Shown in pieces: positions 1,358-22,034 of a stretch of 24,000 nt of DNA (positions within the stretch are counted from its first letter, which is position 1; each line of letters opens with the position of its first letter). The stretch comes from Soehngenia longivitae. GTDB lineage: Bacteria > Bacillota > Clostridia > Tissierellales > Tissierellaceae. The DNA lies in contig NZ_SRIB01000010.1 in the NCBI RefSeq assembly GCF_004684055.1, positions 72,026-96,025 of the forward strand. Direction: 5' to 3'. Under the pieces are notes generated by a model, which saw only the letters and a program-made list of their open reading frames with translations, had not been told where the DNA came from and ran no database searches. The position numbers were made by a program, and so were the translations under genes.

Positions 1358-1385
1358 AACCCCATAGGGGTATAGGAGGTGTGAA

Positions 1386-1685
1386 ATGAAAGAAAAATTG
1401 ATGGGAGTATTATCTGTCTTTACGGCATTGTCTGCAAGCCTTTGCTGAAGTGGAACGCTTATATTAGCTACCCTAGGTCTAGGGTCAGTGGGAAGTGCTT
1501 ATTTTTCAAATTTGACAAAGTTTAAACCATTGTTTGTATTGTTAACTGGTTTGTTGATTTATAAAGGTTATGTTTCACTTGAAAAAAAGAAAGCATCAAA
1601 ATTTACTAAATTATTCTTTTATATATCATCTTTTGTAGCAATAATTATGCTATACCTTCCAACGATTATAAACTATTTAAGTTAG
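1386..1685 (+). CDS. MerT-like small membrane protein, candidate selenoprotein (in-frame TGA at 1446..1448 read as Sec); alternatively a nonsense pseudogene
   Basis: SD AGGAGGT at 1374..1380 and ATG at 1386. After 20 codons comes TGA at 1446, and the same frame continues into the track ORF 1488..1685 (1488-1386=102, divisible by 3). The read-through product is MKEKLMGVLSVFTALSASLC-U-SGTLILATLGLGSVGSAYFSNLTKFKPLFVLLTGLLIYKGY..., about 99 aa with predicted TM helices. The CU pair aligns with the MerT TM1 CC pair. The 1488 GTG has no SD of its own. Confidence 0.6.
1467..1488 (+). other. SECIS-like stem-loop downstream of the in-frame TGA
   Basis: Stem ACCCTA (1470..1475) pairs with TAGGGT (1480..1485), loop GGUC (1476..1479). 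The stem is extendable by T1469-A1487 and C1468-G1488 with C1486 bulged. The loop G/U lies 30 nt from the U of UGA, within the range generally described for bacterial SECIS elements. Confidence 0.45.
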
Positions 1686-3457
1686 TTTTCTAATTTTCTG
1701 TATAATGTTGCTAAGCTTATATCTAGCCTTTTGGCTAGATTTTTCTTTTCCTCAACACTATCTCCTATTAGTAAAATTTCTTTCTTTAAAAATTCTTTCT
1801 CAAATTCCTTTACAACCTGCTTTAAAGTCTTATCATTTACAATATTGTTTTTCTTAGAACTGATTTTCTTTAAAACCTTACTTTCATCTATTATGTCATT
1901 ATTTTCAAATATGACACAGTACTCTACTATATTTTTTAATTCACGGACATTCCCAGGGAACGAATACTCTAAAAGCAATTTCTCTGCTTTTGTTGTAAAT
2001 CCTTTTATGTTTTTATCATACACTTTATTAAAATTGTCTAGAAAATATCTCGCTAATAATAAAACATCATATCCTCTTTCTCTAAGTGGAGGTATATTTA
2101 TCTGAATTATATTCAACCTATAGAAAAGGTCTTCTCTGAATTCATTCTTTTCCACTAGTAAAGATAAATTCTTATTAGTAGCAGCGATAATCCTAGGATT
2201 TGTTTTTATTGTATTTGTAGAACCTATTCTCTTTATTTCTTTTTCTTCTAAAGCTCTCAATAATTTAACTTGGGTTGAATACTTCAATTCACTTATTTCA
2301 TCTAGTAAAAGTGTCCCATTTGTAGACACTTCAAAAATCCCTTTCTTTCCACTAGCCAAAGCTCCTGTGAACGAGCCCTTCTCATACCCAAACAATTCGC
2401 TCTCTATTAAACTATCTGCTATCGCACCACAGTTTACAGCCATATATATGTCTTTGGATCGATTGCTTGAAAAATGTATAGCTTTTGCAAACACTTCTTT
2501 TCCAGTACCAGTTTCTCCATATATCAAAACCGGTACATCCACCTTGGCACTTTCAATAGCTTGAAGTCTAGCTTGTCTTATAGCTTCACTCTCGCCGACT
2601 ATATCATCAAATGTGGTAAACTCCTTATATCTATCCGATTTCATAATGGAGTCTTTCATCTTTTTGAAATCTTTAAATACAAATACATGCCCTTTTCTCT
2701 CACTACTAAAATAAAATGTATTGATTTGAACCATATATTCATTACCATTTATGTACACTGGTCCTAAATCGCCACAAAATCCTTCAGTAATTTTATCCAA
2801 TATTTTATCTGGTAAAATATCCGATAGCTTGTAATCAAAGTTCTTTTTTAGCTCAAATCTCTTTACTACATATTCATTTGTGCTTTGAATATTTAAGGAG
2901 TTATCAGCGACAATAATGCCTTCATTTATTGAGTTAATGAGTGTTTTAAACTCTAAATGTCTATATTCTAAAAGCTCAGCATAATCCCGTCTTTTTAAAA
3001 TTTCCTCAATTATGCCTCTGATCCTAATTTCTAAATTATAGAATCTGTCCTTATTTAAAACGAAACTTTCTTTTGTCTTTTCATCGAAAGCGCAAAGACC
3101 AATGACTCCAATTATCATATTATCATACTTTATTGGCAAACACATCTCAACTAATTCATTGCATTCAAGTAGATTCTCGCATTGTGTGCAAAACTCATTT
3201 TCTCTAGGATTTACTATAAAATAACTCTCTGCTGTTAATAAGCACTTGTGAAATAACGAATTTAGTGGTGCTTTTTCTCCTATTGTATTTGCCAGCACCC
3301 CAGTAGCGGCTACTCTAAATAATTCCTCATCAACTATTGCCATATCCACATTAGTCACGTCGTGTAAAGATTCAATTATTTCTTGAAGCTCAGATTTTAT
3401 ATCATATAAAAGCGTCACGGTATCACCTACTATATATTTATAATAGTAAGTTATCAT
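1682..3457 (-). CDS. Sigma-54-dependent transcriptional activator (N-terminal Cys-rich sensor/GAF-like domain, PAS, AAA+ sigma-54 interaction domain, C-terminal Fis-type HTH)
   Basis: Walker A 'GETGTGKE', 'ESELFGYEKGSFTGA' (GAFTGA variant), 'LLLDEI', 'FREDLFYRLN', 'GNVRELKN', and a C-terminal HTH 'LAKRLDISLATLYRKL'. An alternative GTG start at 3418 is preceded by AGGTGA, whereas the ATG at 3457 has no clear SD. The stop codon overlaps the stop of the convergent 1386..1685 gene. Confidence 0.9.
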   Translation of the reverse strand: MITYYYKYIVGDTVTLLYDIKSELQEIIESLHDVTNVDMAIVDEELFRVAATGVLANTIGEKAPLNSLFHKCLLTAESYFIVNPRENEFCTQCENLLECNELVEMCLPIKYDNMIIGVIGLCAFDEKTKESFVLNKDRFYNLEIRIRGIIEEILKRRDYAELLEYRHLEFKTLINSINEGIIVADNSLNIQSTNEYVVKRFELKKNFDYKLSDILPDKILDKITEGFCGDLGPVYINGNEYMVQINTFYFSSERKGHVFVFKDFKKMKDSIMKSDRYKEFTTFDDIVGESEAIRQARLQAIESAKVDVPVLIYGETGTGKEVFAKAIHFSSNRSKDIYMAVNCGAIADSLIESELFGYEKGSFTGALASGKKGIFEVSTNGTLLLDEISELKYSTQVKLLRALEEKEIKRIGSTNTIKTNPRIIAATNKNLSLLVEKNEFREDLFYRLNIIQINIPPLRERGYDVLLLARYFLDNFNKVYDKNIKGFTTKAEKLLLEYSFPGNVRELKNIVEYCVIFENNDIIDESKVLKKISSKKNNIVNDKTLKQVVKEFEKEFLKKEILLIGDSVEEKKNLAKRLDISLATLYRKLEN

Positions 3458-4273: not shown

Positions 4274-5533
4274 TTGGAAGAAAAATTATTATCTATATTG
4301 AAAAATCAGGTTGTAAAAGCTTTGGGATGCACAGAACCAGCAGCAGTAGCATTAGCTGTTGCAAAAGCTAGAGAAATATTAGCTGAAGATATAGAGAGCT
4401 TAGAAGTAAATGTAAATACTAATGTATTAAAAAATGGAATGTGTGTAGGTATACCCTTTACTAATGAGAAAGGACTTGTTATGGCTTGTGCTATAGCCAT
4501 GATACATGGTAATTCTTCTGATGGCCTCGAGGTACTAAATAATATAGATGATGATACTTTACAACAAGCTAGGTGCATTGTAGATAGAGACTCTATAAAA
4601 ATAAAAGTGGATTTTGAAAAAGACTTCTTCTATATTGATGTAAGAGCGTATTCAAAAAATAATTATTCACAGGTTATTATTAAAGATAATCACACAAACA
4701 TTTGCTATGAATCTTTGAATGGAAAGGTTATTAAGAATGAAAGTAGTTTAGAAAATAAATTAGACTTAAAAAACGAGATAAAAAATTATGATATAGATGA
4801 TTTAATATATTTCTCAAGGAATATAAATATCGAGAAAATATATTTCATTAAAGAGGGAATAGCTGTCAATTTAAATTTAGCTCAAATCGGAGCAAGTAAA
4901 GATCTCGGAATTGGATTATGTAAGGTGTACATAAGAGATGCTGATGATGTATATAAAAAGGCAAAAGCACTTACCGTGTGTGCATCTGAAGCTAGAATGT
5001 CTGGCTATCCATTATCTGTCATGAGCTCAGCAGGAAGTGGTAATCATGGTTTAGTAGCTATTATACCTCTAGCAGTCATTGGAGAAGTACTTAAAAAAAC
5101 AGAAGAAGAAATAATCAGGGCTATAACTTTAAGTCATTTAGTGACAATTTACGTGAAAGCACATATTGGCACTCTCACTCCTGTATGTGGTTGTTCAGTA
5201 GCTTCCGGTTTAGGCTTAAGTGCAGGGCTTACAATGCTTGAAAATGGAAATGACCAAAAAATAAAGGCAAGTATAAATAACACACTTGCCGGTATCTCTG
5301 GTATGTTTTGTGATGGGGCAAAAGAGGGATGCGCTTACAAATTGTCAATATCTGTTACAGCCGCAATAGAAGCATCTCATTTAGCTCTATCAGGTGTTCA
5401 AATTCCCTATGATAATGGCATACTCGGTGAAACAGTTGAAAAATCAATAAAAAACCTTCATAAAGTGACATCAGAAGGCATGAAAAATGTAGATAGAGAA
5501 ATTCTAGAAATAATGCTTAATAAGCTTAATTAG
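4274..5533 (+). CDS. UPF0597 / L-cysteine desulfidase (YhaM-like, serine dehydratase alpha-like) family protein
   Basis: 419 aa, TTG start with SD GGAGGGG. N-terminal 'VKALGCTEPAAVALA', 'SSAGSGNHG', and 'GMFCDGAKEGCAYK' are collinear with E. coli YhaM motifs (ALGCTEP, SNSGSGNQG, GMICDGASNSCAMK) as I recall them. Confidence 0.85.
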   Translation: MEEKLLSILKNQVVKALGCTEPAAVALAVAKAREILAEDIESLEVNVNTNVLKNGMCVGIPFTNEKGLVMACAIAMIHGNSSDGLEVLNNIDDDTLQQARCIVDRDSIKIKVDFEKDFFYIDVRAYSKNNYSQVIIKDNHTNICYESLNGKVIKNESSLENKLDLKNEIKNYDIDDLIYFSRNINIEKIYFIKEGIAVNLNLAQIGASKDLGIGLCKVYIRDADDVYKKAKALTVCASEARMSGYPLSVMSSAGSGNHGLVAIIPLAVIGEVLKKTEEEIIRAITLSHLVTIYVKAHIGTLTPVCGCSVASGLGLSAGLTMLENGNDQKIKASINNTLAGISGMFCDGAKEGCAYKLSISVTAAIEASHLALSGVQIPYDNGILGETVEKSIKNLHKVTSEGMKNVDREILEIMLNKLN

Positions 5534-5993
5534 CATTTTCTATATCTAGGAGGGCTTTCTTAATTTCAAGTCCTCCTTTGTATCCGACTAATGATTGATC
5601 AGAACCTACTACTCTATGGCATGGGACTATGATAGGAATCGGGTTTTTGTTATTTGCTCTTCCAACAGCTCTATAGGCTTTCTTGTTTTCTATGTTCATT
5701 GCGATTTCTTTATAAGTCTTAGTTTCTCCATATGGTATTTTTAACAATTCATTCCAAACTTTGACTTGAAATTCAGTTCCATACAGTTCAATAGGCACAG
5801 TGAAGATTTTTCTATTACCATTTAAATATTCTTCTATTTGTCTTATTGCATTTTCTATCGTTGGCGTCATCTCAAATTTATATTCTTTATCTATCTTTTC
5901 TTCATTGTACTCAATTCTAAATATTTTTCTGTTTGTCTCGTAAATATTTAAATTCCCAATTTTACTTTCAAAAGAAAAAACATATTTAGGCAT
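5526..5993 (-). CDS. ogt: Methylated-DNA--protein-cysteine methyltransferase
   Basis: 155 aa with 'PCHRVV' active site, 'YGETKTYKEIA', and 'RAVGRANNKNPIPIIVP'. The SD AAGGAG is embedded in the end of the upstream gene. The 3' end overlaps the convergent 4274..5533 gene by 8 nt. Confidence 0.92.
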   Translation of the reverse strand: MPKYVFSFESKIGNLNIYETNRKIFRIEYNEEKIDKEYKFEMTPTIENAIRQIEEYLNGNRKIFTVPIELYGTEFQVKVWNELLKIPYGETKTYKEIAMNIENKKAYRAVGRANNKNPIPIIVPCHRVVGSDQSLVGYKGGLEIKKALLDIENAN

Positions 5994-5994
5994 T

Positions 5995-6792
5995 TTAATT
6001 TGCTCCTTTTTTGATGTTTTTATATCTTTGAATGTTTTCTTCTGTTAAAAATTCATAAGCATCATTGATCTCTTGAAATCTTCTAGTTGCATCTGGCGCT
6101 TTGTTTAAATCAGGATGGTACTCTTTCGCTTTTTTTCTATATGCCAATTTCACTTGATAAATGTCAGTTTCTGGTGATACTCCCAATAGTTCACAGCTTT
6201 TTTCATATTTACTAATAAATTCAGTCGTAGGGTTTTGATATGTTGCACCTCTGTATTGCCCATTTCCATTCTGATAGTAGCCTTGATATCCCCTGTTGAA
6301 ATTTTGATATTCTTGCCACTGCCTAAATCTTTCTTCCCACTCTTCTTTTTCTCTTCTCTGCCTTTCTTCCCTCTCTTTTCTTTCCCTTTCTTCTTCCATA
6401 TTTCTATATTTTCTGCTGAATTCATCAAAAGACTTGTACTCTGTTTTTCCTTCGATCAAATATTCACTTAAGTCAAATAAATATTCAGTTGTTATATATT
6501 TTAGATATTGTAGATATGAAATAAATTTCTTCCCTAAAATCGGAATTACAATAAATAGAAATATTGTAATAATAGTTATCGGATTAAATAATAGTGCTAT
6601 TCCTAAAGGTGAGAATAAAAGAAATATTACTAATATGCCACCCATCGCTATCAATGTCAATAATATTTTGCCTAGTCCCACTATTAAATCCACTATGGTT
6701 GTAAATATCCAAATCAGTCCGTCAAAAATTATAGAAATCACTTTTGCTAAACCGTAAATAAATTTTCCTGCAATTTTTTTTAAAAAGTTCAT
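5995..6792 (-). CDS. Membrane-anchored J-domain (DnaJ-like) protein
   Basis: N-terminal hydrophobic helices, an E/R/K-rich then Q/N/Y/G-rich linker, and a C-terminal J domain 'YQVKLAYRKKAKEYHPDLNK...FQEINDAYEFL' with the HPD motif. I prefer the start at ATG 6792 (MNFLKK...) because SD AAGGGGA lies 5 nt upstream. The track start at 6831 lacks an SD. Confidence 0.75.
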   Translation of the reverse strand: MNFLKKIAGKFIYGLAKVISIIFDGLIWIFTTIVDLIVGLGKILLTLIAMGGILVIFLLFSPLGIALLFNPITIITIFLFIVIPILGKKFISYLQYLKYITTEYLFDLSEYLIEGKTEYKSFDEFSRKYRNMEEERERKEREERQRREKEEWEERFRQWQEYQNFNRGYQGYYQNGNGQYRGATYQNPTTEFISKYEKSCELLGVSPETDIYQVKLAYRKKAKEYHPDLNKAPDATRRFQEINDAYEFLTEENIQRYKNIKKGAN

Positions 6793-12530: not shown

Positions 12531-12995
12531 CTATTCTACAACCACTTTTCCATCTTCAATTAATTTATCTGCAACCCATTCTGCAACTCTTCCAGTTATT
12601 TCAACACAGTGCTTCTTCCTTTCAGGGCTTTGGAAATTGTCCCCAGCCCATTTCCTTGTCATAACTCTACAGCAAGTTGAGCCGTATTCATCTTTTATAA
12701 AATCATGCAAGTCAGCTGAAATTGGAAACATGGAATCATCCATTTTTTCACCATAATTTCTGCCATAAACCATTCCCAAAGCCATAATTCCACCACTTAC
12801 CGCTCCACATAGACAACCCGATTTACCAATCCCTATCGGAAATCCTGATGCCATTTTTACTACATTATCTTCATATGGTTTCCCAAGCAAATTATTAATT
12901 GTTCTTACAACTGCTTCAGAACAGAAAAATTCTCCTCTTTCAAAATACCCTTCAGCCTCATTTTTAACTTGATTAACTAATTCTTCTCTGGTCAT
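12531..12995 (-). CDS. C_GCAxxG_C_C family (putative redox-active) protein
   Basis: 154 aa. 'FCSEAVV', 'GCLCGAVSGGIMALG', 'STCCRVM', and 'KHCVE' give the characteristic Cys pattern. SD AGAGGTG upstream. Confidence 0.78.
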   Translation of the reverse strand: MTREELVNQVKNEAEGYFERGEFFCSEAVVRTINNLLGKPYEDNVVKMASGFPIGIGKSGCLCGAVSGGIMALGMVYGRNYGEKMDDSMFPISADLHDFIKDEYGSTCCRVMTRKWAGDNFQSPERKKHCVEITGRVAEWVADKLIEDGKVVVE

Positions 12996-13005
12996 ATTAT
13001 CACCT

Positions 13006-13929
13006 CTAATTAGATTTTACATTGAAACTTAAAAACGAAATGTATCTTATTAAAACATATACTACCAATAAAACCGCAATTATCTCTTCAATCAATGCAA
13101 CTGAAGATAAAAACTTTAATGATTCATTTACTCCTTTTAAGTAGTTGGCCGCTCCCTTTAAACCAATAGCTGTAATGACGGTTGGAAAAGTGAAAGCCGA
13201 GTACGATGGATAAAACTTTAAACTCAAAAGCTTTGGCAGCTGAGTCAACACATAGATATAAAGAATTTGTGAAATAATTAAAAGTGCAAGTACTGCTACA
13301 TAGCTTTTGTTTTCAAATGCATTCATATATCCTGCAAGCAACAGCCCTGCAGGTGCAGTCATTATTGTTATCGTAGGTAAAGCTGGTTCAGGTATACCCT
13401 TTACAACAAAGACTCTTTTAATTACAACTGGCAAGATCACTATAAAGCTAATAAGTCCAAAATAGAACAACCATCTTCCAACTTCTTCATATCCGAAAGC
13501 TTTAGAAGAAACTGATCCTGCTACAATTCCTACATATACGATAAACCATGAAGGAAATACTTTTTTAATATCAAATTTTGATATGAACTTCATTGAAAAC
13601 CAGACAATCAATATGATATGAAAAATTAATCCAATGACCCATATAGCTCTAGCAAGTAAATCTGAATAAGGTATTAAATATGTACTTAAAATCATTATCG
13701 ACATGCTAAATGCTGGAAAAGTACTAGCTATTACGGGGTTTTCTAAATCTTTTTTTGTCTGTTCAAATGAAGTAAATATCTTGATAATTAAAAGCACTGC
13801 AAATATAGCACTTATAGCCCCAAATATGTTGCGATAAACTTCTCCATGGCTTTGTACTAAGTTTCCACATGCAGCAAGTCCGAGTATAAGCCCTGAAATT
13901 GGCAATGGAATTTTCTTTATTCTCTCCAT
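13006..13929 (-). CDS. TDT (TehA / tellurite-resistance / dicarboxylate, SLAC1-like) family transporter
   Basis: About 10-TM protein starting 'MERIKKIPLPISGLILGLAACGNL'. ATG 13929 is preferred (SD GGAGGTG 4 nt upstream) over the track start at 13953. Confidence 0.78.
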   Translation of the reverse strand: MERIKKIPLPISGLILGLAACGNLVQSHGEVYRNIFGAISAIFAVLLIIKIFTSFEQTKKDLENPVIASTFPAFSMSIMILSTYLIPYSDLLARAIWVIGLIFHIILIVWFSMKFISKFDIKKVFPSWFIVYVGIVAGSVSSKAFGYEEVGRWLFYFGLISFIVILPVVIKRVFVVKGIPEPALPTITIMTAPAGLLLAGYMNAFENKSYVAVLALLIISQILYIYVLTQLPKLLSLKFYPSYSAFTFPTVITAIGLKGAANYLKGVNESLKFLSSVALIEEIIAVLLVVYVLIRYISFLSFNVKSN

Positions 13930-14100
13930 AAAACACCTCCTTATCTTAGTCATAATCTAGTTTAACACAAAAATATATAATAGCTCATTGAATTTTTTTA
14001 TGTATTTCTTTGTTCTAATAAAATTTTCTATAGTAGTATTTAGTTAATTGCATAAATCCTTCGCAAACGCAACACTATCATGGTGTAATTGAAGAAAATG

Positions 14101-14109
14101 TGCTATAAT
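14101..14109 (+). promoter_or_regulatory. Possible extended -10 element for the HTH-hsdMSR operon
   Basis: TGCTATAAT (TGn + TATAAT) lies about 30 nt upstream of ATG 14138. The -35 at 17-bp spacing (TGGTGT) is poor. Confidence 0.3.
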
Positions 14110-14137
14110 GGAAAAAATATATAAAGAGGTGACCAAG

Positions 14138-14359
14138 ATGACCGTTAGCTATAAAAAGCTTTGGAAATTGTTGATAGACCGCGACATGAAGAAGAAAGAT
14201 TTACAAGCTGCTGCAGGAATAAGTCCATCGTCAATTTCAAAGCTTTCTAAAAATGAATATGTCAGCATGGACGTTCTTGTAAAAGTTTGTACGGCGCTTG
14301 GCGTTGATTTTAAAGATATCATGGAATTGGTGCCAAATACAGCTGAAGAAAGGAAGTAA
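14138..14359 (+). CDS. XRE/Cro-C1-type helix-turn-helix transcriptional regulator
   Basis: 73 aa. 'LLIDRDMKKKDLQAAAGISPSSISKLSKNEYVSMDVLVKVCTALG' is a classic HTH_XRE. ATG 14138 is preferred (SD AAGAGGTG) over the track start at 14108. It ends 3 nt before hsdM. Confidence 0.85.
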   Translation: MTVSYKKLWKLLIDRDMKKKDLQAAAGISPSSISKLSKNEYVSMDVLVKVCTALGVDFKDIMELVPNTAEERK

Positions 14360-14362
14360 ATT

Positions 14363-15931
14363 ATGGAAAACAACAGAAAAGAACAGGAACGAGCAGAATT
14401 ACACCGTACCATATGGAATATTGCAAATGATTTAAGAGGTAGCGTAGATGGATGGGATTTTAAACAATATGTTCTCGGTATGTTATTTTACCGCTACATA
14501 TCTGAAAATATCACTAGTTTCATTAATGCTGGCGAATGGGAAACTGGCAATACAGAATTTGATTATGCTAAGTTATCAGATGAGGAAGCAGAACAGGCAC
14601 GAGAAGATCTAGTCAACACGAAAGGTTTCTTCATTTTACCCAGTGAACTTTTTGAAAACGTCCGCAAGCGTGCAAAAGACGACGAAAACTTAAATGAGAC
14701 GTTGGAGCTGATTTTTAGCAATATTGAAGCATCTGCACAAGGAACAGAAAGTGAAGATAATTTCAAAGGCTTGTTTGACGATATTGACGTTAACAGCAAT
14801 AAGCTAGGCAACACTGTAGCAAAGCGCAATGAAAAGCTAGTTAAACTACTTAATTCTATTGGAGAAATGAAATTAGGAGATTATAAAGACAATACCATAG
14901 ATGCATTTGGCGATGCCTATGAATTTTTAATGAGTATGTATGCCTCAAGTGCCGGAAAGAGCGGCGGAGAATATTATACACCACAGGAGGTTTCTGAACT
15001 CCTTACACGGTTAACAATAGTAGGAAAAACTGAAGTCAACAAAGTATATGACCCAGCTTGTGGTTCGGGCTCTTTGTTGTTAAAGTTTGCAAAAGTCTTA
15101 GGAAAAAATAAAGTGCGTCAGGGTTTTTTCGGTCAAGAAATTAACATCACAACCTACAACCTGTGCCGAATAAATATGTTCTTACACGATATTGATTATG
15201 ATAAATTCGACATTGCCCTTGGTGATACGCTAACGGATCCTCAACATTGGGATGATGAGCCTTTTGAAGCTATTGTTTCAAATCCACCTTACTCTATTAA
15301 ATGGAAGGGCGACAGCGATCCTATTCTCATTAATGATCCTCGTTTTTCACCAGCAGGAGTATTGGCTCCAAAATCCAAGGCAGACCTTGCATTTATAATG
15401 CATAGCCTCTCTTGGCTTGCAACGAATGGTACAGCGGCTATTGTTTGTTTCCCCGGTGTAATGTACCGCGGTGGCGCTGAAAAGAAAATCAGACAATACT
15501 TAATTGACAACAACTACATCGACTGTATTATTCAGTTGCCAGATAATCTGTTTTTCGGCACTAGCATAGCTACCTGCATTATGGTACTCAAAAAGTCTAA
15601 ATCAGAAAACAGCACCTTATTTATCGATGCATCACAGGAATTTGTCAAGGTCACAAATAATAACAAGCTATCACAGGAAAATATCGAGACTATTCTTAAT
15701 GCATTTAAAGATAGAAAAGATATTGAGCATTTTGCTAAGCTTGTGCCAAACAATGAAATCGCTGAACATGAATATAATCTTTCAGTATCAAATTATGTTG
15801 AAAAAGAAGACATGCGTGAGAAAATAGACATTAAGAAGCTTAACGCTGAAATAGAAGAAATAGTAGCAAGGGAGCAGATTTTAAGAGATGAAATAGACAA
15901 GATCATCGCAGAAATTGAGGTGGAGAAATGA
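14363..15931 (+). CDS. hsdM: Type I restriction-modification system, DNA methyltransferase subunit M
   Basis: 522 aa. HsdM N-terminal domain ('[10 protein letters not shown]...[16 protein letters not shown]'), AdoMet motif '[13 protein letters not shown]', and catalytic 'VSNPPYS'. Confidence 0.95.
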
Positions 15932-17130
15932 GTAGATTGGATGAGTTGATTGAGGAACTTTGCCCTGATGGGGTGGAGTATAAACCTTTATGGGAAGTAA
16001 CAATTTGGGATAAGAAGTTTAATGCAGTTGAACGGTATAAGCAAAAAAAGGTTTATACCTATCCATATATGCTCGCTAGTGATTTGTTTAAATTGGAAAG
16101 AAAAGAAGGAGATGTATATTTATTATCAACAGGTGAAAAAACTGGATGGACAACAGAAGATCTTGCAGGTGATAATCTATGCAAAGGTGAAGTTGTAGCT
16201 ATTCCATGGGGCGGTACACCAAACGTTAAATATTACAACGGTAAATTTGTTACAGCTGACAATAGGATTGCTACGTCAATTGACACAACAGTTCTTTGTA
16301 ATAAATTTCTTTATTACTGGATGCAAAATAACATTGATACTATTGCAAGCTTTTACAGAGGCTCAGGCATTAAGCATCCTAACATGAAAAATATCTTGGA
16401 TATGGAAATCCCCCTTCCCCCTCTGCCTGTACAGCAGGAAATTGTCCGCATACTGGACAATTTTACAGAGCTTATAACAGAAATTGAATCTGAAATTAAG
16501 CTAAGGAAAAAACAGTATGATTATTATAGAGATTCGTTGCTAAGTAGAGAAGAACTAAATAAACTATGCCCAGATGGGGTGGAATATAAAAAGATAAAAC
16601 AGGTCTACAAAAGGCTCAAGGGTACTCCTATTACTGCTGGAAAAATGAAAGAAATTGATAATCCTTATGGTGAAATCAGAATCTTTGCAGGTGGAAAAAC
16701 TGTAATTAATGCAATGGAAAAGGATATTCCAAACGTAAATATTACAAGAGTTCCAGCAGTCTTGGTACAATCCAGAGGTGTAATTGATGCTGTTTATTAT
16801 GATAAGCCTTTTACATTTAAAAATGAAATGTGGGCATATACAGACGATAATACAATAGCTGTGAAATATTTATATTATGTGCTAAAAAACAACCTCTCAC
16901 ATTTTAGAAAAACTGCATCGAGTATGGGTTCATTGCCACAGATTTCTCTTCCTGATACAGAAGAATTTGTTATCCCTCTCCCCCCTCTGCCTGTACAGCA
17001 GGAAATTGTGCGTATATTAGACAATTTTACAGAACTTATAGAGGAACTTACAGCCGAACTAGAAGCTCGCCAAAAGCAATATGAATATTACAGAGATAAA
17101 CTTTTGTCTTTTAAGGAGGTGTCGTCATGA
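15928..17130 (+). CDS. hsdS: Type I restriction-modification system, specificity subunit S
   Basis: 400 aa with two target-recognition halves, each opening with 'LCPDGVEYK' and closing with '[22 protein letters not shown]...YYRD.LLS'. ATGA start/stop overlap with hsdM. Confidence 0.93.
16408..17040 (+). repeat. Internal direct repeats of hsdS (central and distal conserved regions)
   Basis: The 69-bp copies at 16408..16476 and 16972..17040 are 62/69 identical by my count, including the 29-bp identical run CCCCTCTGCCTGTACAGCAGGAAATTGT. A second pair lies at 15961..15984 and 16567..16590. Confidence 0.85.
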
Positions 17131-20100
17131 GTATATACAACATTGTAGCAAGTACTGATGAAGTAACAGTTGTTGCCGAATATGCAGCAGAATATAATGT
17201 ACGCTCTGAAAAGTATCAGAGTGAAGCAGAACTTGAAAGAGAATTTATCTTCCAGTTGACTTCACAGGGGTATGAATATATTTCAGTGCACAACGAATCT
17301 GCATTGATAAAAAACCTCCGAAAACAACTTGAAATACTCAATGACTTCACCTTTACTGATAGTGAATGGGATAAGTTTTTCACAGAGTGCATTGCAAATA
17401 CTAATGAGGGAATTGTTGAAAAGACCAGAAAAATTCAGGATGATCATATACAAATTCTAAAACGTGAAGATGGAACAACGAAGAACATATACCTTTTAGA
17501 TAAGAAGAATATCCACAACAATCGCCTGCAGGTCATTAATCAATATGAAGAAGAAGGCGGTAAGCATGAAACCCGATATGATGTAACTATACTTGTCAAT
17601 GGGCTTCCTCTTGTTCATGTAGAATTAAAGCGTCGCGGAATTGCTATCCGAGAAGCCTTCAATCAGATAAATAGATACCAGCGAGACAGCTTTTGGGCGG
17701 CTTCTGGTTTGTTTGATTATGTGCAGATTTTTGTCATATCCAATGGAACTCACACAAAGTACTATAGTAACACCACAAGAAACGCTCATATCAAGGAACA
17801 AAGTAGCGGTGAACGCCAAAAAAATAAAAAAACGAGCAACAGTTTTGAGTTTACAAACTATTGGGCAGATGCAAATAACAAAATTATTCCTGACCTTGTA
17901 GACTTTACTAAAACTTTTTTTGCCAAACACACACTTTTAAATATTTTAACAAAATATTGTGTTTTTACTTCTGAAGATCTACTTCTTGTAATGCGTCCTT
18001 ATCAAATCGCTGCTGCAGAACGTATATTATCACGTATTGTAGTATCAACCAACTATAAGAAAATGGGTACAACTGCTGCAGGAGGATATGTCTGGCATAC
18101 CACAGGCTCTGGAAAGACATTGACAAGTTTTAAGACAGCACAATTAGCGTCGGCTTTACCTTACATAGATAAGGTACTATTCGTTGTTGACCGTAAAGAT
18201 CTGGATTATCAGACTATGAAAGAATATGACCGCTTTGAAAAGGGAGCAGCTAACGGTAACACGTCTACAAGAGTTCTTCAAAGGCAATTAGAAGACAAAG
18301 ATGAAAAAGGAAACCCTCACGAATACAAAATTATTGTAACCACAATTCAGAAACTAGATATATTTATCCGTAAAAACAAACAGCATGATATCTATAAGAA
18401 ACACGTAGTATTGATTTTTGATGAGTGCCACCGTTCCCAGTTTGGAGAGATGCATCAAGCCATCACTAAGAACTTTAAAAACTACCATATTTTTGGATTT
18501 ACAGGAACACCGATTTTTGCTGCAAATGCCAGCTCAAGTGGAAACCCGCTGTTTCGTACAACCGAGCAAACTTTCGGAGAAAAGCTTCATACTTACACCA
18601 TTGTCGATGCTATAAATGATGGAAATGTTCTACCTTTTAGGATAGATTTTATCAATACAATTAAAATGCCTGATTATTTAAATGATAAAAAAGTCTATAG
18701 CATTGACCGAGAGAAAGCTTTAGCAGATCCACAGCGAATTAGTGAAATCGTCTCTTACGTTCTTGAGCATTTTGACCAGAAAACAAAACGCAATAGTTAT
18801 TATACATTCTCAGCAAAATGGGAAGAAATAGATAAAAAAAATCCTAAGAATATAATTGAAAAGCGCGAAACAAGACGTGTTGCTGGTTTTAACTCCATAT
18901 TTGCTACCGCATCGATTCCAATGGCGATCAGATACTATAATGAGTTTAAGAAGCAGATAGCGGAAAAAAACCATAACCTTATCATTGCAACTATTTTCAG
19001 TTTTAGTGCAAATGAAGAAGAGCCAGATGGACTGTTGCCTGAAGAGGATTTTAATATGGAAACCCTTGACCAGAGCTCCAGAGATTTTCTTGAATCGGCT
19101 ATAAGGGATTACAATATGACATTCAACACAAATTATGATACTTCTTCTGACAAGTTTCAGAATTACTATAAAGACATCTCTCTTCGTGTAAAGAATCGGG
19201 AGATTGATATTTTGATTGTTGTCAATATGTTCCTAACAGGCTTTGATGCAACAACACTGAATACACTGTGGGTAGATAAAAACCTAAGGCAACATGGACT
19301 GATTCAAGCTTTTTCAAGAACAAATCGCATTTTAAATAGCGTTAAGACCTATGGCAACATCGTTTGTTTTAGAGATTTGAAAGAAGAAACAGACAAAGCT
19401 ATTGCACTATTTGGCAATAAAGATGCTGGCGGTATTGTACTGCTAAAAACATTCGAAGAATACTACAATGGCTATGATGATAAAGGTGAGTATAAACCTG
19501 GCTATGCTGAACTGATTGAAACTCTTACAACAAAGTATCCCCTTGGTCAAGCTATCCTAGGAGAGGAAGCAGAAAAAGACTTCATAAGGCTATATGGTGC
19601 AATCCTTCGACTCAGAAATATTCTTACTTCTTTCGATGACTTTGAAGGCAATGAGATTTTATCTGAAAGGGATTTTCAAGACTATCAGAGTATTTATATT
19701 GACCTGTATCAGGAATATAGAAAAGGAACTGATGCAGATAAAGAAACTATCAATGACGACATAATTTTTGAGATCGAACTGGTCAAACAAATAGAGGTAA
19801 ATATTGACTACATCCTCATGCTTGTAGCTAAATATCAACAATCCAACTGTAAAGATAAAACGATTCTTACAACTATTGATAAAGCGATTAATTCAAGTAT
19901 TGAACTTCGAAGTAAGAAAGAGCTTATCGAACGTTTTATTGAACAGGTCAATGTATCTACCAAAGTGGATGAGGATTGGCGCAAATTCCTGAATGAGCGT
20001 AAGGAAGAAGATATTTCAGCAATTATAGAAGAAGAAAAATTAAAACCTCAAGAAACCCGCCACTTCATTGACAATGCTTTTCGAGATGGAATGCTTAAGA

Positions 20101-20228
20101 CAACTGGTACAGCTATTGATAAAATCATGCCTCCTGTATCGCGCTTTGGAGGAAACAGGGCTGCTAAAAAGCAAGGAATTATTGAAAAGTTAATGTTACT
20201 CTTTGAGAAGTATTCAGGGTTAGTGTAG
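17127..20228 (+). CDS. hsdR: Type I restriction endonuclease subunit R (ATP-dependent helicase/nuclease)
   Basis: 1033 aa. N-terminal PD-(D/E)xK region ('YDVTILVNGLPLVHVELKRRG'), helicase motif I 'TTGSGKT', motif II 'IFDECHRSQ', 'GFTGTPI', and 'FLTGFDA...QAFSRTNR'. ATGA overlap with hsdS. Confidence 0.95.
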   Translation: MSIYNIVASTDEVTVVAEYAAEYNVRSEKYQSEAELEREFIFQLTSQGYEYISVHNESALIKNLRKQLEILNDFTFTDSEWDKFFTECIANTNEGIVEKTRKIQDDHIQILKREDGTTKNIYLLDKKNIHNNRLQVINQYEEEGGKHETRYDVTILVNGLPLVHVELKRRGIAIREAFNQINRYQRDSFWAASGLFDYVQIFVISNGTHTKYYSNTTRNAHIKEQSSGERQKNKKTSNSFEFTNYWADANNKIIPDLVDFTKTFFAKHTLLNILTKYCVFTSEDLLLVMRPYQIAAAERILSRIVVSTNYKKMGTTAAGGYVWHTTGSGKTLTSFKTAQLASALPYIDKVLFVVDRKDLDYQTMKEYDRFEKGAANGNTSTRVLQRQLEDKDEKGNPHEYKIIVTTIQKLDIFIRKNKQHDIYKKHVVLIFDECHRSQFGEMHQAITKNFKNYHIFGFTGTPIFAANASSSGNPLFRTTEQTFGEKLHTYTIVDAINDGNVLPFRIDFINTIKMPDYLNDKKVYSIDREKALADPQRISEIVSYVLEHFDQKTKRNSYYTFSAKWEEIDKKNPKNIIEKRETRRVAGFNSIFATASIPMAIRYYNEFKKQIAEKNHNLIIATIFSFSANEEEPDGLLPEEDFNMETLDQSSRDFLESAIRDYNMTFNTNYDTSSDKFQNYYKDISLRVKNREIDILIVVNMFLTGFDATTLNTLWVDKNLRQHGLIQAFSRTNRILNSVKTYGNIVCFRDLKEETDKAIALFGNKDAGGIVLLKTFEEYYNGYDDKGEYKPGYAELIETLTTKYPLGQAILGEEAEKDFIRLYGAILRLRNILTSFDDFEGNEILSERDFQDYQSIYIDLYQEYRKGTDADKETINDDIIFEIELVKQIEVNIDYILMLVAKYQQSNCKDKTILTTIDKAINSSIELRSKKELIERFIEQVNVSTKVDEDWRKFLNERKEEDISAIIEEEKLKPQETRHFIDNAFRDGMLKTTGTAIDKIMPPVSRFGGNRAAKKQGIIEKLMLLFEKYSGLV

Positions 20229-20301: not shown

Positions 20302-20318
20302 AATATCAACTTCATATT

Positions 20319-20467
20319 TTTTTAAGGTGTATTACTTAATAGGGAAATGCGTGAAACGCTGCAGCCCCCGCTACTGTATATGGTATGCTTATCATTTATC
20401 CACTGTAGATTTACTATGGGAAGGTTTGATAAGTTTAAGCCACAAGCCAGGAGACCTGCCTTAAAAA
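20319..20467 (+). promoter_or_regulatory. Cobalamin (B12) riboswitch aptamer
   Basis: Conserved core 'AATAGGGAA..GTGAAA...GCAGCCCCCGCTACTGT', 'CCACTG...TGGGAAGG', and B12 box 'AAGCCAGGAGACCTGCC' (20444..20460). The closing P1 pairs TTTTTAAGG (20319..20327) with CCTTAAAAA (20459..20467). Confidence 0.88.
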
Positions 20468-20527
20468 TTATGTTCTACTTTCGGAGGGAAAGGAGGAAAC
20501 AAATTAACAAGTATTTTTGTTTATTTT

Positions 20528-20574: not shown

Positions 20575-21078
20575 ATGAAACCAGATTATGATTTAATAAG
20601 TTACCCATTTTTAAATGAAGATGCAAAAGTCGTAGACCATGAAATTTTGACTGATAAGCTTTCTGCAAGTTTAGGTCATATATTGTCTCAAAATACCCCT
20701 TTAGAAAAAGAAACTTGGTGGTTATTAGAAAGAGTTTTACATCTAAATGGATCATTACGAGGTAAAATGGCAATTTCGGATGCTGATGTCAAAGAAGGGC
20801 TATTAATGTATCATGTGTTAAAAGAAAGAAATAAGGGTAGAGTGGTTAATTTTGTCTACCCAACAGGTTCTAGCATTGCAACTCTGTACCATAACGCAAG
20901 ATGTGAAGCAAAGATAGTTACACGAAATTTACATTTAATTGAAAAATCTGGTGTAGTTGTACCACAGATTTTAATTGATTTTTCAAATCTAGCAGCAAAT
21001 CTATTGTTTGCATTTGCGATAGAAACTAACAGGTTAGAAAATATTGACGAAATAGAATTCATATCAAAATCTTATTAA
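20575..21078 (+). CDS. Uncharacterised soluble protein, first gene of the B12-riboswitch operon; weak resemblance to the PduO-type corrinoid adenosyltransferase helical bundle
   Basis: 167 aa, SD AGGAGGA 6-7 nt upstream. 'NFVYPTGSSIATLYHNAR' resembles PduO 'KFILPGGTQLASALHVAR', and 'LIDFSNLAANLLFAFA' resembles 'LIFINRLSDYFFAAA'. The N-terminal KxGDxGxT ATP loop and the RRAER motif are absent. The comparison is by eye against a remembered sequence. Confidence 0.35.
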   Translation: MKPDYDLISYPFLNEDAKVVDHEILTDKLSASLGHILSQNTPLEKETWWLLERVLHLNGSLRGKMAISDADVKEGLLMYHVLKERNKGRVVNFVYPTGSSIATLYHNARCEAKIVTRNLHLIEKSGVVVPQILIDFSNLAANLLFAFAIETNRLENIDEIEFISKSY

Positions 21079-21097
21079 TTGGAGGAATTGACGTAAA

Positions 21098-21538
21098 ATG
21101 AATAATACTAAAAAAGTTATATTAACAATACTGGCAATAGCAGTAGTTTTAGGAGTATTTTTTGGAATTAATAGTTACTTTCAAGGTAGTGATTTAGATA
21201 AGACTATTTATATAACTATAATTGATGATACTACTGGAGAAGTATTGATGGAAAAAAGTAAATTTACAACTGAAAAAGCAACTCTTGGTGATTTTCTAGA
21301 AGAGAATAAAGAAAAATTAGATGTAAAAATGACTGATACTCAGTTTGGAAGATTCTTAGATGGTTTATTGGGAATAGAAACAGCAGATATGACAAATGGC
21401 CCTTGGTGGATGTATTCATATAAGTCTACTGAAAAAGGTCTTGACATGAAAATAGGAGAAGCCCCAGGTGTTGATTCTATTGGACTTAATGATGGTGATG
21501 AAATCGAATTTCACTATACTATAATGTCTGGAATGTAA
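21098..21538 (+). CDS. Membrane-anchored DUF4430 (transcobalamin beta-domain-like) protein, probable extracytoplasmic corrinoid binder
   Basis: N-terminal signal-anchor 'KKVILTILAIAVVLGVFFG', then 'GPWWMYSY...IGLNDGDEIEFHYT', which is typical of DUF4430. It lies downstream of a cobalamin riboswitch. Confidence 0.65.
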   Translation: MNNTKKVILTILAIAVVLGVFFGINSYFQGSDLDKTIYITIIDDTTGEVLMEKSKFTTEKATLGDFLEENKEKLDVKMTDTQFGRFLDGLLGIETADMTNGPWWMYSYKSTEKGLDMKIGEAPGVDSIGLNDGDEIEFHYTIMSGM

Positions 21539-21539
21539 A

Positions 21540-22034
21540 ATGAGTAGTAGGAAAATCACAAAAGTAGCTATGTTAGCTAGCATATTGTATATCATACAAT
21601 TTATAGGGTCTGGACTATTATATATCGAGCTTGTGAATTTTACTATTCTATTATATGGTGTGAGCCTAAAAAGAGATGAATCCTATTTAGCAGTTACCAT
21701 ATTTTGCTTATTGGTGATGTTAACTCGAGGCTTTGGGCTATGGACAATAATGTATTTAATTGTTTTTCCGCAATATGCTTTAATATATTCAACTTTAGGC
21801 AAAAAAATAAATTCACTTATTGTACTTGCACTGTTAGGGTTTATACTAGCTTTTATTTGTGGAACATTAATTGACATACCGTATATTGTCGCTGCAAATT
21901 TGGATTACAGAGGCCTTTTAATCAGATTACTTCTTGGATTTCAAGTTTCTATTGTAAATGCTTTAGTTACTTTCATTGCAACATTATTTTTGCTAAATCC
22001 TTTAAAAAAGCTTCTATTGAAGCTCAATACCTAA
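21540..22034 (+). CDS. Small polytopic membrane protein, ECF-transporter S-component-like (CbrT-like candidate)
   Basis: 164 aa with about 5-6 hydrophobic helices and the N-terminal 'RKITKVAMLASILYI' typical of S components. It is translationally coupled to the DUF4430 gene (1-nt gap) and sits in a B12-regulated operon. Confidence 0.5.
   Translation: MSSRKITKVAMLASILYIIQFIGSGLLYIELVNFTILLYGVSLKRDESYLAVTIFCLLVMLTRGFGLWTIMYLIVFPQYALIYSTLGKKINSLIVLALLGFILAFICGTLIDIPYIVAANLDYRGLLIRLLLGFQVSIVNALVTFIATLFLLNPLKKLLLKLNT

Follow-up and report, generated by a model that had tools for sequence, protein, structure and literature searches.

What is encoded by a short reading frame that opens behind a strong Shine-Dalgarno (SD) sequence and is then broken by a single TGA? 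Such a frame lies at positions 1386-1685 of a 24,000-nt stretch of the Soehngenia longivitae genome, the whole of which is called the window here. For this frame, the mechanical list of open reading frames (ORFs) holds just a 65-aa ORF starting with GTG (1488-1685), as the original prediction, made from the letters alone, had observed. Its further claim, that an SD sequence and an ATG at 1386 open one frame interrupted by a lone TGA at 1446-1448, was confirmed by direct reading of the plus strand. The SD sequence AGGAGGT occupies 1374-1380, with the start codon (1386-1388) 5 nt further on, and GGAGG is kept ahead of the start codon in most orthologues. The codon for Cys20 (TGC, 1443-1445) is directly followed by the TGA, and when the latter is bridged the frame stays open through to a TAG at 1683-1685. 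The full coding sequence (1386-1685, plus strand) thus has 99 codons including one for selenocysteine (Sec) at position 21, and the peptide around the site reads ...SASLC-U-SGTLILATLGLGSVGSAYFSNLTK.

Our answer, to which we assign a probability of roughly 80%, is that the gene specifies a 99-residue, three-helix membrane selenoprotein of the MerT superfamily that would function in soft-metal handling under CsoR/RcnR-type control. A single TGA-bridged frame is in itself unremarkable. The window holds 21 of them in all, of which the other 20 were dismissed on account of their position within or antisense to longer ORFs. The case was therefore made from comparative data: collinear orthologues, ratios of nonsynonymous to synonymous substitution (dN/dS), family matches and RNA folding.

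Conservation of the UGA codon and selection on the frame

A scan of one genome per species yielded 40 orthologous loci, 39 of them full-length. Codon counts refer to 40 sequences, namely the 39 full-length loci and the window, and cover 39 other species with identities down to about 46%. The hosts are mostly Tissierellales (Soehngenia, Gudongella and Tissierella), together with a few Clostridium and Alkaliphilus. Codon 21 is TGA in 40/40 sequences, while the neighboring Cys20 codon drifts synonymously (TGC in 22, TGT in 18). The residues MKEK and Cys20 are invariant in the family. By the Nei-Gojobori method applied to all pairs, dN/dS is 0.12 at codons 2-20 and 0.14 at codons 22-95, and the 20 codons upstream of the TGA thus share the purifying selection that acts on the rest of the protein. 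The original prediction had raised two ways in which homologues might speak against it, namely Cys in close relatives together with decay of the frame here, and an N-terminal segment of 20 codons lying outside the conserved protein. No frame decay was seen, the frame is conserved on both sides of an invariant TGA, and the N-terminal codons belong to the conserved protein.

The databases present this gene in two disguises. A protein search retrieved full-length homologues of 99-101 aa, all of which read 'LCW' at the critical position, as well as forms of 65-77 aa that start downstream, the length to which other gene callers shorten the gene. An NCBI record of one orthologue (P0124), for example, is a truncated 77-aa 'hypothetical protein'. 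The entries with 'LCW' (Trp) in public sets are P0001, P0002, P0004, P0006-P0011, P0017, P0097, P0099-P0123 and P0125. Among the full-length metagenomic family members listed (n=37), CW was found in 37/37 and CC in 0. Four 'CW' proteins were spot-checked, two from the family and two distant relatives, and the W codon proved to be TGA in each. The encoding contigs carry TGA there, so the 'W' is spurious, TGA having been taken for a Trp codon by the gene callers. For the metagenomic entries, it presumably stems from the choice of translation table 4 on short contigs.

A SECIS-type hairpin downstream of the UGA

The sequence after the UGA had been singled out by the original prediction as the place to look for a selenocysteine insertion sequence (SECIS), and folding and comparison located a hairpin there at the expected distance (1467-1489, plus strand). 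In the minimum free energy fold, a core stem pairs 1470-1475 with 1480-1485 around the apical loop GGUC (1476-1479), and a lower extension pairs 1467-1469 with 1487-1489, leaving C1486 bulged. The loop lies 27 nt from the UGA. In bacterial SECIS elements this distance is 16-37 nt (PMC10778597), and the 'minimal' bacterial SECIS, to which the 5-7 bp stem found here is similar, is a short hairpin of 5-6 bp (PMC4607533). With its spacing inside that range, G and U in the loop, and conservation and covariation over 40 sequences, the hairpin has the properties of a bacterial SECIS.

Every one of the 40 sequences folds a hairpin at the equivalent place with the loop distance fixed. The GG of the loop is invariant, and the Gly31 codon is GGT in 36/39 while other Gly codons vary freely. 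Four core pairs (alignment columns 30-41, 31-40, 32-39 and 33-38) are compatible with pairing in 40/40, with wobble variants of the types U-A to U-G and A-U to G-U. The closing pair (columns 28/43) appears as five standard pair types (CG 9, UA 9, AU 3, GU 2, UG 1). Most of the cells scored as unpaired come from the Gudongella clade, which forms a 5-bp stem shifted by 1 nt with the loop UGGGUCU. Synonymous divergence (dS) drops to 0.70 in codons 28-35, whereas other parts of the gene give about 1.8-2.7, the high values being near saturation. Two distant relatives of the TGA type (L051 and L052) have a counterpart of the GGU-loop hairpin, equally far from the UGA. Among Cys-type relatives, the hairpin is missing in 3/4 and the fourth has a weak 4-bp version; in this small sample, the trend is the one to be expected of a SECIS. 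Neither the hairpin nor the leader matched any Rfam family, whether at gathering thresholds or in an E-value scan of 1250-1760; the sole match, to a snoRNA at E = 2.7, was judged spurious.

The closing pair also leaves a trace in the protein. It corresponds to window positions 1470 and 1485, the first positions of codons 29 and 34, and as these bases must pair to close the SECIS stem, residues 29 and 34 change in concert (Thr/Ser, Ser/Thr, Pro/Ala, Ala/Ser). This is a case of RNA structure driving an apparent protein covariation.

Relationship to MerT

The protein is predicted to form three helices (residues about 2-29, 33-67 and 72-98), and an AlphaFold2 model of a 92%-identical orthologue likewise has three long helices, although its mean pLDDT is only 65.7. 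The best NCBIfam match is to NF033560 (merT_RC607; E = 6e-9), with residues 2-90 aligned to profile positions 1-90 of 97, and the Pfam MerT model (PF02411) is matched at E = 1.5e-4. When a profile of the family was run against 1.84 billion representative proteins, just 81 relatives were recovered at E <= 1e-3. Most of them are of the Cys type and read 'CC' at the corresponding position, and those above the Pfam MerT threshold include P0062 (78.6 bits), P0037 (76.4) and P0027 (65.2). A search of PDB sequences with the same profile gave chance matches only (E >= 0.49).

In a joint alignment, the CC pair in the first transmembrane helix (TM1) of the Pfam-passing MerT proteins falls over Cys20 and the TGA of codon 21, and the alignment is collinear over the full length. 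This agrees with the claim that the frame is collinear with TM1 of MerT and that the TGA sits on the second Cys of the CC motif, and it assigns the C-U pair of the window gene (1443-1448, plus strand) to the MerT TM1 pair. The cytoplasmic-loop Cys pair of canonical MerT (e.g. CRPGEAC) appears in the same alignment as a deletion in the 99-aa family; the TM2-TM3 loop of the window protein reads SLEKKKASKFTK and is Cys-free. Homology to the MerT superfamily, with CU replacing CC, is therefore very probable despite the sub-threshold Pfam score.

Selenocysteine decoding in the host lineage

Support for Sec use in these organisms came from a gene for O6-alkylguanine-DNA alkyltransferase (MGMT/Ogt) found within a few kb of the MerT-like gene. 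In 12 loci (L011-L020, L023 and L024) it is a Sec form: the codon for the catalytic Cys is replaced by TGA (P-UGA-HRVI), the frame continues downstream in conserved form, and the gene has its own GGU-loop hairpin about 15-18 nt past the UGA. An example is L020:6574-7044 (minus strand), with its TGA at 6681. Sec-type MGMT is among the selenoprotein families listed in PMC9312934. Tissierella creatinophila DSM 6911, which contributes locus L041 to the orthologue set, encodes the selenoprotein GrdB and a multi-selenoprotein SAO system (Haft preprint). Judging by the 12 Sec-type MGMT genes and the GrdB and SAO system of T. creatinophila, the lineage of the window organism decodes Sec.

The MGMT gene has the Cys form (PCHRV) in the window, L006, L008 and L036, so that a Cys/Sec switch has occurred between close relatives within a known selenoprotein family.

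Two alternatives deny that Sec is inserted at codon 21. The weaker, that a MerT-like gene was killed by one TGY-to-TGA change so that the 65-aa GTG ORF or nothing is expressed, gains some color from the facts that in one sequence a TGA one mutation from Cys looks like a nonsense mutation and that the gene is truncated in public gene calls (P0005, P0013, P0124), but it was rejected as having a negligible chance of being correct, given a TGA that is kept in all 40 sequences beside a drifting Cys codon, purifying selection and an intact frame on both sides, a conserved SD sequence and ATG, and a conserved SECIS-like hairpin.

The other has UGA read as a different amino acid, either by genome-wide reassignment (code 4/25, Trp/Gly) or by a near-cognate tRNA stimulated by the hairpin (Trp/Cys). 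It would account for the 'LCW' of public gene callers and for the Sec machinery not being seen in the window. We nevertheless consider it very improbable. TGA ends 3/23 of the long ORFs of the window, and UGA is therefore not reassigned in this organism. Furthermore, the UGA codon aligns with Cys rather than Trp in homologues, the position of the hairpin and its G/U-containing loop are those of a bacterial SECIS, and the same genomes use UGA for the catalytic residue of MGMT, which must be Cys or Sec for the enzyme to work. Together, the conserved TGA, the two-sided selection, the CW-only family members and the TGA stops exclude both a pseudogene and genome-wide recoding. The selenoprotein reading of the original prediction is thus supported by the conserved TGA, the selection on the frame, the Cys in relatives, the hairpin and the use of Sec in the lineage, and by this comparative evidence the window segment 1386-1685 is almost certainly an intact Sec-encoding gene.

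Genomic context and possible substrates

In the clade of the window, the MerT-like gene is flanked on one side by a divergent baeRF-family gene and on the other by a convergent gene for a sigma-54-dependent activator, with a rhodanese gene and a UPF0597/SDH_alpha (cysteine-desulfidase-like) gene within 2-3 kb. Outside this clade the neighbors are wholly different (FtsH, TetR, AcrB-like and HtpG). The synteny therefore reflects ancestry and not function, and the sigma-54 activator, baeRF, UPF0597 and rhodanese were rejected as functional partners because they are limited to one clade. The original prediction had noted that merR, merA and merP are not nearby. This was borne out for the window, and none of the three was found in any of the 40 loci.

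Two features of the flanking genes are recorded for their own sake. The MerT-like gene, which ends in the TAG at 1683-1685, and the convergent gene for the sigma-54-dependent activator (1682-3457, minus strand) overlap in their stop codons. The baeRF-family gene (PF18849/PF18845; 85-1242, minus strand), divergent upstream and kept in 17 loci, encodes a bacterial protein resembling archaeo-eukaryotic release factors. It is curious to find such a gene next to one that recodes UGA, but the arrangement is confined to one clade.

The neighbors of Cys-type and distant Sec-type relatives add to the case for a role with metals. At L049:238-946 a CsoR-family repressor gene is followed by a Cys-type MerT, at L046:1501-2648 a MerT-like gene is followed by ArsR and then zf_CopZ, at L050:1501-2273 a MerT gene is followed by one for an HMA protein, and at L051:283-1239 MerR and MerF precede a MerT-like gene of the TGA form. 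The small MerT module seems to have been put to use repeatedly, under metal sensors of several kinds. From homology and the context of these relatives, we regard binding or transport of a soft metal by the window protein as an even proposition.

A different role for the same selenoprotein was also weighed: it could import mercury for resistance, or it could carry persulfide or selenide under a CstR-like sensor of the CsoR family. Operators of the CsoR family also serve non-metal sensors such as CstR. For mercury speak the homology to MerT and the distant Sec form in a MerR-MerF-MerT-like operon; against it speak the failure to find merA, merP or merR in the window or the 40 loci and the deletion of the cytoplasmic Cys pair that would serve the hand-off to MerA. 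For sulfur or selenium, the rhodanese and UPF0597/SDH_alpha genes of the window's clade could be cited, but they vanish outside that clade, which points to ancestry and not to a functional link. Either role seems doubtful to us, and handling of a soft metal under a CsoR/RcnR-type repressor remains the preferred reading.

A putative promoter and an operator-like palindrome

Upstream of the SD sequence, an extended -10 element, TGTTAGAAT (TGnTAGAAT), was read at 1349-1357 on the plus strand, with a weak -35-like TTGTAT at 1329-1334, 17 nt upstream of it. About 17 of the orthologous loci have TGnTAnAAT at the corresponding position. The element at 1349-1357 matches the consensus at only 8/12 positions and went uncalled in a promoter scan, so that the putative promoter is proposed here on its phylogenetic footprint.

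Right after the -10 box, and ending 1 nt ahead of the SD sequence, lies a C/G-tract pseudopalindrome, AACCCCATAGGGGTA (1358-1372, plus strand), with an (A/T)AC-N9-GT(A/T) frame. In about 413 kb of sequence (the window and the loci) the motif occurs 20 times, and 20/20 occurrences are located 20-32 nt before the start codon of a MerT-like gene. Its form recalls the type-2 CsoR operators, TAC-N9-GTA with G/C tracts and the consensus ATATACCCCTNAGGGGTATAT (PMC3902906); the window site reads AAC-CCCATAGGG-GTA. In addition, the Cys-type MerT P0027 is encoded directly downstream of a PF02583 CsoR/RcnR-family repressor gene, itself with a C/G-tract palindrome before its SD sequence. Based on the motif scan and the likeness to CsoR operators, 1358-1372 is a tentative CsoR-type operator, at slightly less than even odds.

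A competing view is that the palindrome acts as an RNA hairpin in the 5' untranslated region, stabilizing the mRNA or tuning access to the SD sequence, and not as a protein operator. The motif keeps a near-constant distance from the SD sequence and start codon (-20 to -32) but a variable one, between 0 and about 12 nt, from the -10 box, the palindrome folds as a 5-bp GC hairpin (-7.2 kcal/mol), and a CsoR-family gene was not found nearby. The fold has a z-score of only -0.8, and because the motif directly adjoins the -10 box of the window gene, transcription likely starts inside it. The fixed 15-nt (A/T)AC-N9-GT(A/T) frame with its variable C/G tracts fits the published type-2 CsoR sites, and the Cys-type relative directly follows a PF02583 repressor having its own palindrome. 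On balance we judge the RNA element unlikely, though a serious contender, and prefer the CsoR-type operator.

Elsewhere in the family the leader looks different. In that of a Clostridiaceae metagenome-assembled genome (L030:860-945), a long perfect inverted repeat, GATATATCCTATAGT...ACTATAGGATATATC, stands where the window has the C/G-tract palindrome, and a TetR-family gene is often found a short way upstream of the orthologue in Tissierella loci. Regulation of the MerT-like family apparently differs by clade.

At the other end of the gene, a hairpin resembling an intrinsic terminator, ATCTAGCC-TTTT-GGCTAGAT followed by a T-run, is found at 1721-1750 on the plus strand (1 site found, 0.3 expected). 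It begins 36 nt past the stop codon of the MerT-like gene, and its hairpin portion (1721-1740) falls within the part of the convergent sigma-54 activator gene that encodes the C-terminal helix-turn-helix (HTH).

Evidence to the contrary

Several observations weigh against our reading. All curated models score the protein below their cut-offs: 22.2 bits for Pfam MerT (gathering threshold 32.9), 36.2 bits for NF033560 (cut-off 130) and 26.5 bits for NF045683 (cut-off 375), the last with only the MerT module matched (profile positions 14-74 of 235). With regard to decoding, selA, selB, selC and selD were not found in the 24-kb window or the flanks, a tRNA scan of the window found none, no tRNA-Sec was found in the window or the 40 loci, and the window's own MGMT copy (5526-5993, minus strand) is the Cys form. 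The single-sequence fold energy of the SECIS region is unremarkable (z = -0.15), which is why the case for the hairpin rests on comparative data, and its stem is made of Leu-Gly-Leu-Gly codons that are constrained at the protein level too. As for metals, no mer, cop or csoR gene is adjacent, and no metal-related gene is a conserved neighbor. Finally, one half-site of the palindrome is AAC in place of the TAC of the published frame, the palindrome could equally be an RNA hairpin, and a six-frame search of the window and loci for the R-x-x-G-Q hallmark did not find a DUF156 (CsoR-family) gene in the window or flanks.

Other features of the window

A putative redox protein with a C_GCAxxG_C_C motif (12531-12995) is encoded next to a SLAC1/TehA-type anion channel (13006-13953), both on the minus strand. 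TehA-type proteins are linked to tellurite and selenite handling, and the pair, 11 kb from the MerT-like gene, may bear on chalcogen metabolism. Further along, an apparent type I restriction-modification operon occupies 14108-20228 (plus strand), after a Cro/C1-type HTH gene (14108-14359). Its methylase (14363-15931) has an NPPY motif, its specificity subunit (15928-17130) has two repeated halves, and its helicase/nuclease subunit (17127-20228) is 1033 aa long; all but the HTH gene were read from translations only. A cobalamin riboswitch (RF00174; 91 bits) at 20308-20477 (plus strand) precedes three small genes (20575-22034). The third encodes a multi-pass membrane protein, and the set may be a B12-related uptake module.

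Proposed mechanism and implications

In the mechanism we propose, the gene would form a stand-alone transcription unit with the extended -10 promoter, and a CsoR/RcnR-family repressor encoded elsewhere in the genome would probably bind at 1358-1372. Translation would begin at the ATG at 1386 behind the strong SD sequence, and at the UGA (1446-1448) the ribosome would insert Sec instead of terminating, a SelB-type factor being recruited by the mRNA hairpin at 1467-1489, with its GGUC loop 27 nt downstream. In the first transmembrane helix of the product, a vicinal Cys20-Sec21 pair takes the place of the Cys-Cys pair that is essential to MerT. A soft thiophilic ion of the Hg(II) or Cu(I) class may be bound there and passed across or along the membrane by thiol/selenol ligand exchange. 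Because the second, cytoplasmic Cys pair of canonical MerT is missing, the ion would be handed straight to a cytosolic acceptor. The most specific form of this idea, an obligately Sec-dependent, minimal carrier of the MerT type with a single C-U pair, placed in a CsoR/RcnR-family regulon rather than in a mer operon, is speculative and, as a whole, unlikely.

Were that form to hold, it would place a selenoprotein within the homeostasis of copper, or of another soft metal or persulfide, in Tissierellales, with the selenol compensating for the missing second Cys pair by faster ligand exchange. A selenoprotein would then for the first time be tied to a DUF156 sensor through regulation, and the MerT-like proteins would gain a new functional class. 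Several uses of the data are more immediate. A 'CW' in public protein sets can hide a 'CU' selenoprotein. A family model and a SECIS alignment can be seeded cleanly from the 40 loci, and the gene-specific CsoR-like palindrome is a lead to the inducer and hence to the substrate. Membrane transport selenoproteins are rare, with two families validated before (Haft 2022), and a subfamily whose sampled members are all Sec forms is a good system for asking what the selenol contributes to a transmembrane metal site. These findings extend an already described family and do not overturn current knowledge.

Comparison with known systems

Whether a Sec-containing MerT-like family is new can be answered directly: such proteins are a known kind that has already been catalogued. 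MerT-family 'CU' selenoproteins have been described (Haft 2022), a review table has the entry 'Putative mercuric transport protein, pfam02411, ABB16073.1', and NCBIfam NF045683 is named 'MerT/CopZ fusion-like heavy metal transport selenoprotein'. Like these recorded proteins, the window protein is a UGA-encoded membrane protein of the MerT superfamily with a Cys-Sec dipeptide, and its relatives share the fate of usually being cut at the UGA in databases. Since MerT has only one vicinal CC, the recorded CU motif would lie at the same TM1 site. Unlike the NF045683-type proteins, however, the window protein has just 99 aa and is without a CopZ/HMA domain. The 99-aa subfamily is further marked by the lack of the loop Cys pair, by being unlinked to mer or cop genes, by matching no curated model above its cut-off, and by the Sec form of every sampled member. 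From profile scores and description, the window gene is a new member, probably of an uncurated subfamily, of this known kind.

With canonical MerT (PF02411; the Tn501/Tn21 type; NF010314) and the Bacillus RC607 type (NF033560), the window protein shares a three-helix topology, as predicted, and the vicinal metal-binding pair in TM1. It differs from both in having Sec for the second Cys, in being without the cytoplasmic-loop Cys pair, in lying outside any mer operon and in scoring below all curated cut-offs. The MerTP/MerT-HMA fusions (NF033556; relatives P0032 and P0042) were retrieved by the family profile and possess a homologous MerT module with the TM1 Cys pair. These fusions are Cys-only and have a C-terminal HMA domain (GMTCxxC) and the loop Cys pair, whereas the window protein is a bare module of three predicted helices.

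The RNA and DNA elements can be compared in the same manner. The putative SECIS resembles that of Escherichia coli fdhF in being a short hairpin within the coding region with G and U in its apical loop (GGUC in the window gene). It differs in its longer spacing from the UGA (27 nt, with about 18 nt in fdhF) and in having no Rfam model, and its binding of SelB is putative. The palindrome resembles the type-2 CsoR operators of Bacillus subtilis copZA and Streptomyces lividans csoR/copZA (PMC3902906) in its C/G tracts, in its 15-nt xAC-N9-GTx frame and in its location at the promoter or transcription start, with AACCCCATAGGGGTA in the window corresponding to the consensus core TACCCCTNAGGGGTA. 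Its half-site is AAC for TAC, however, and csoR, copZ and copA were not found nearby, so the site may serve another DUF156 paralogue or be an RNA element.

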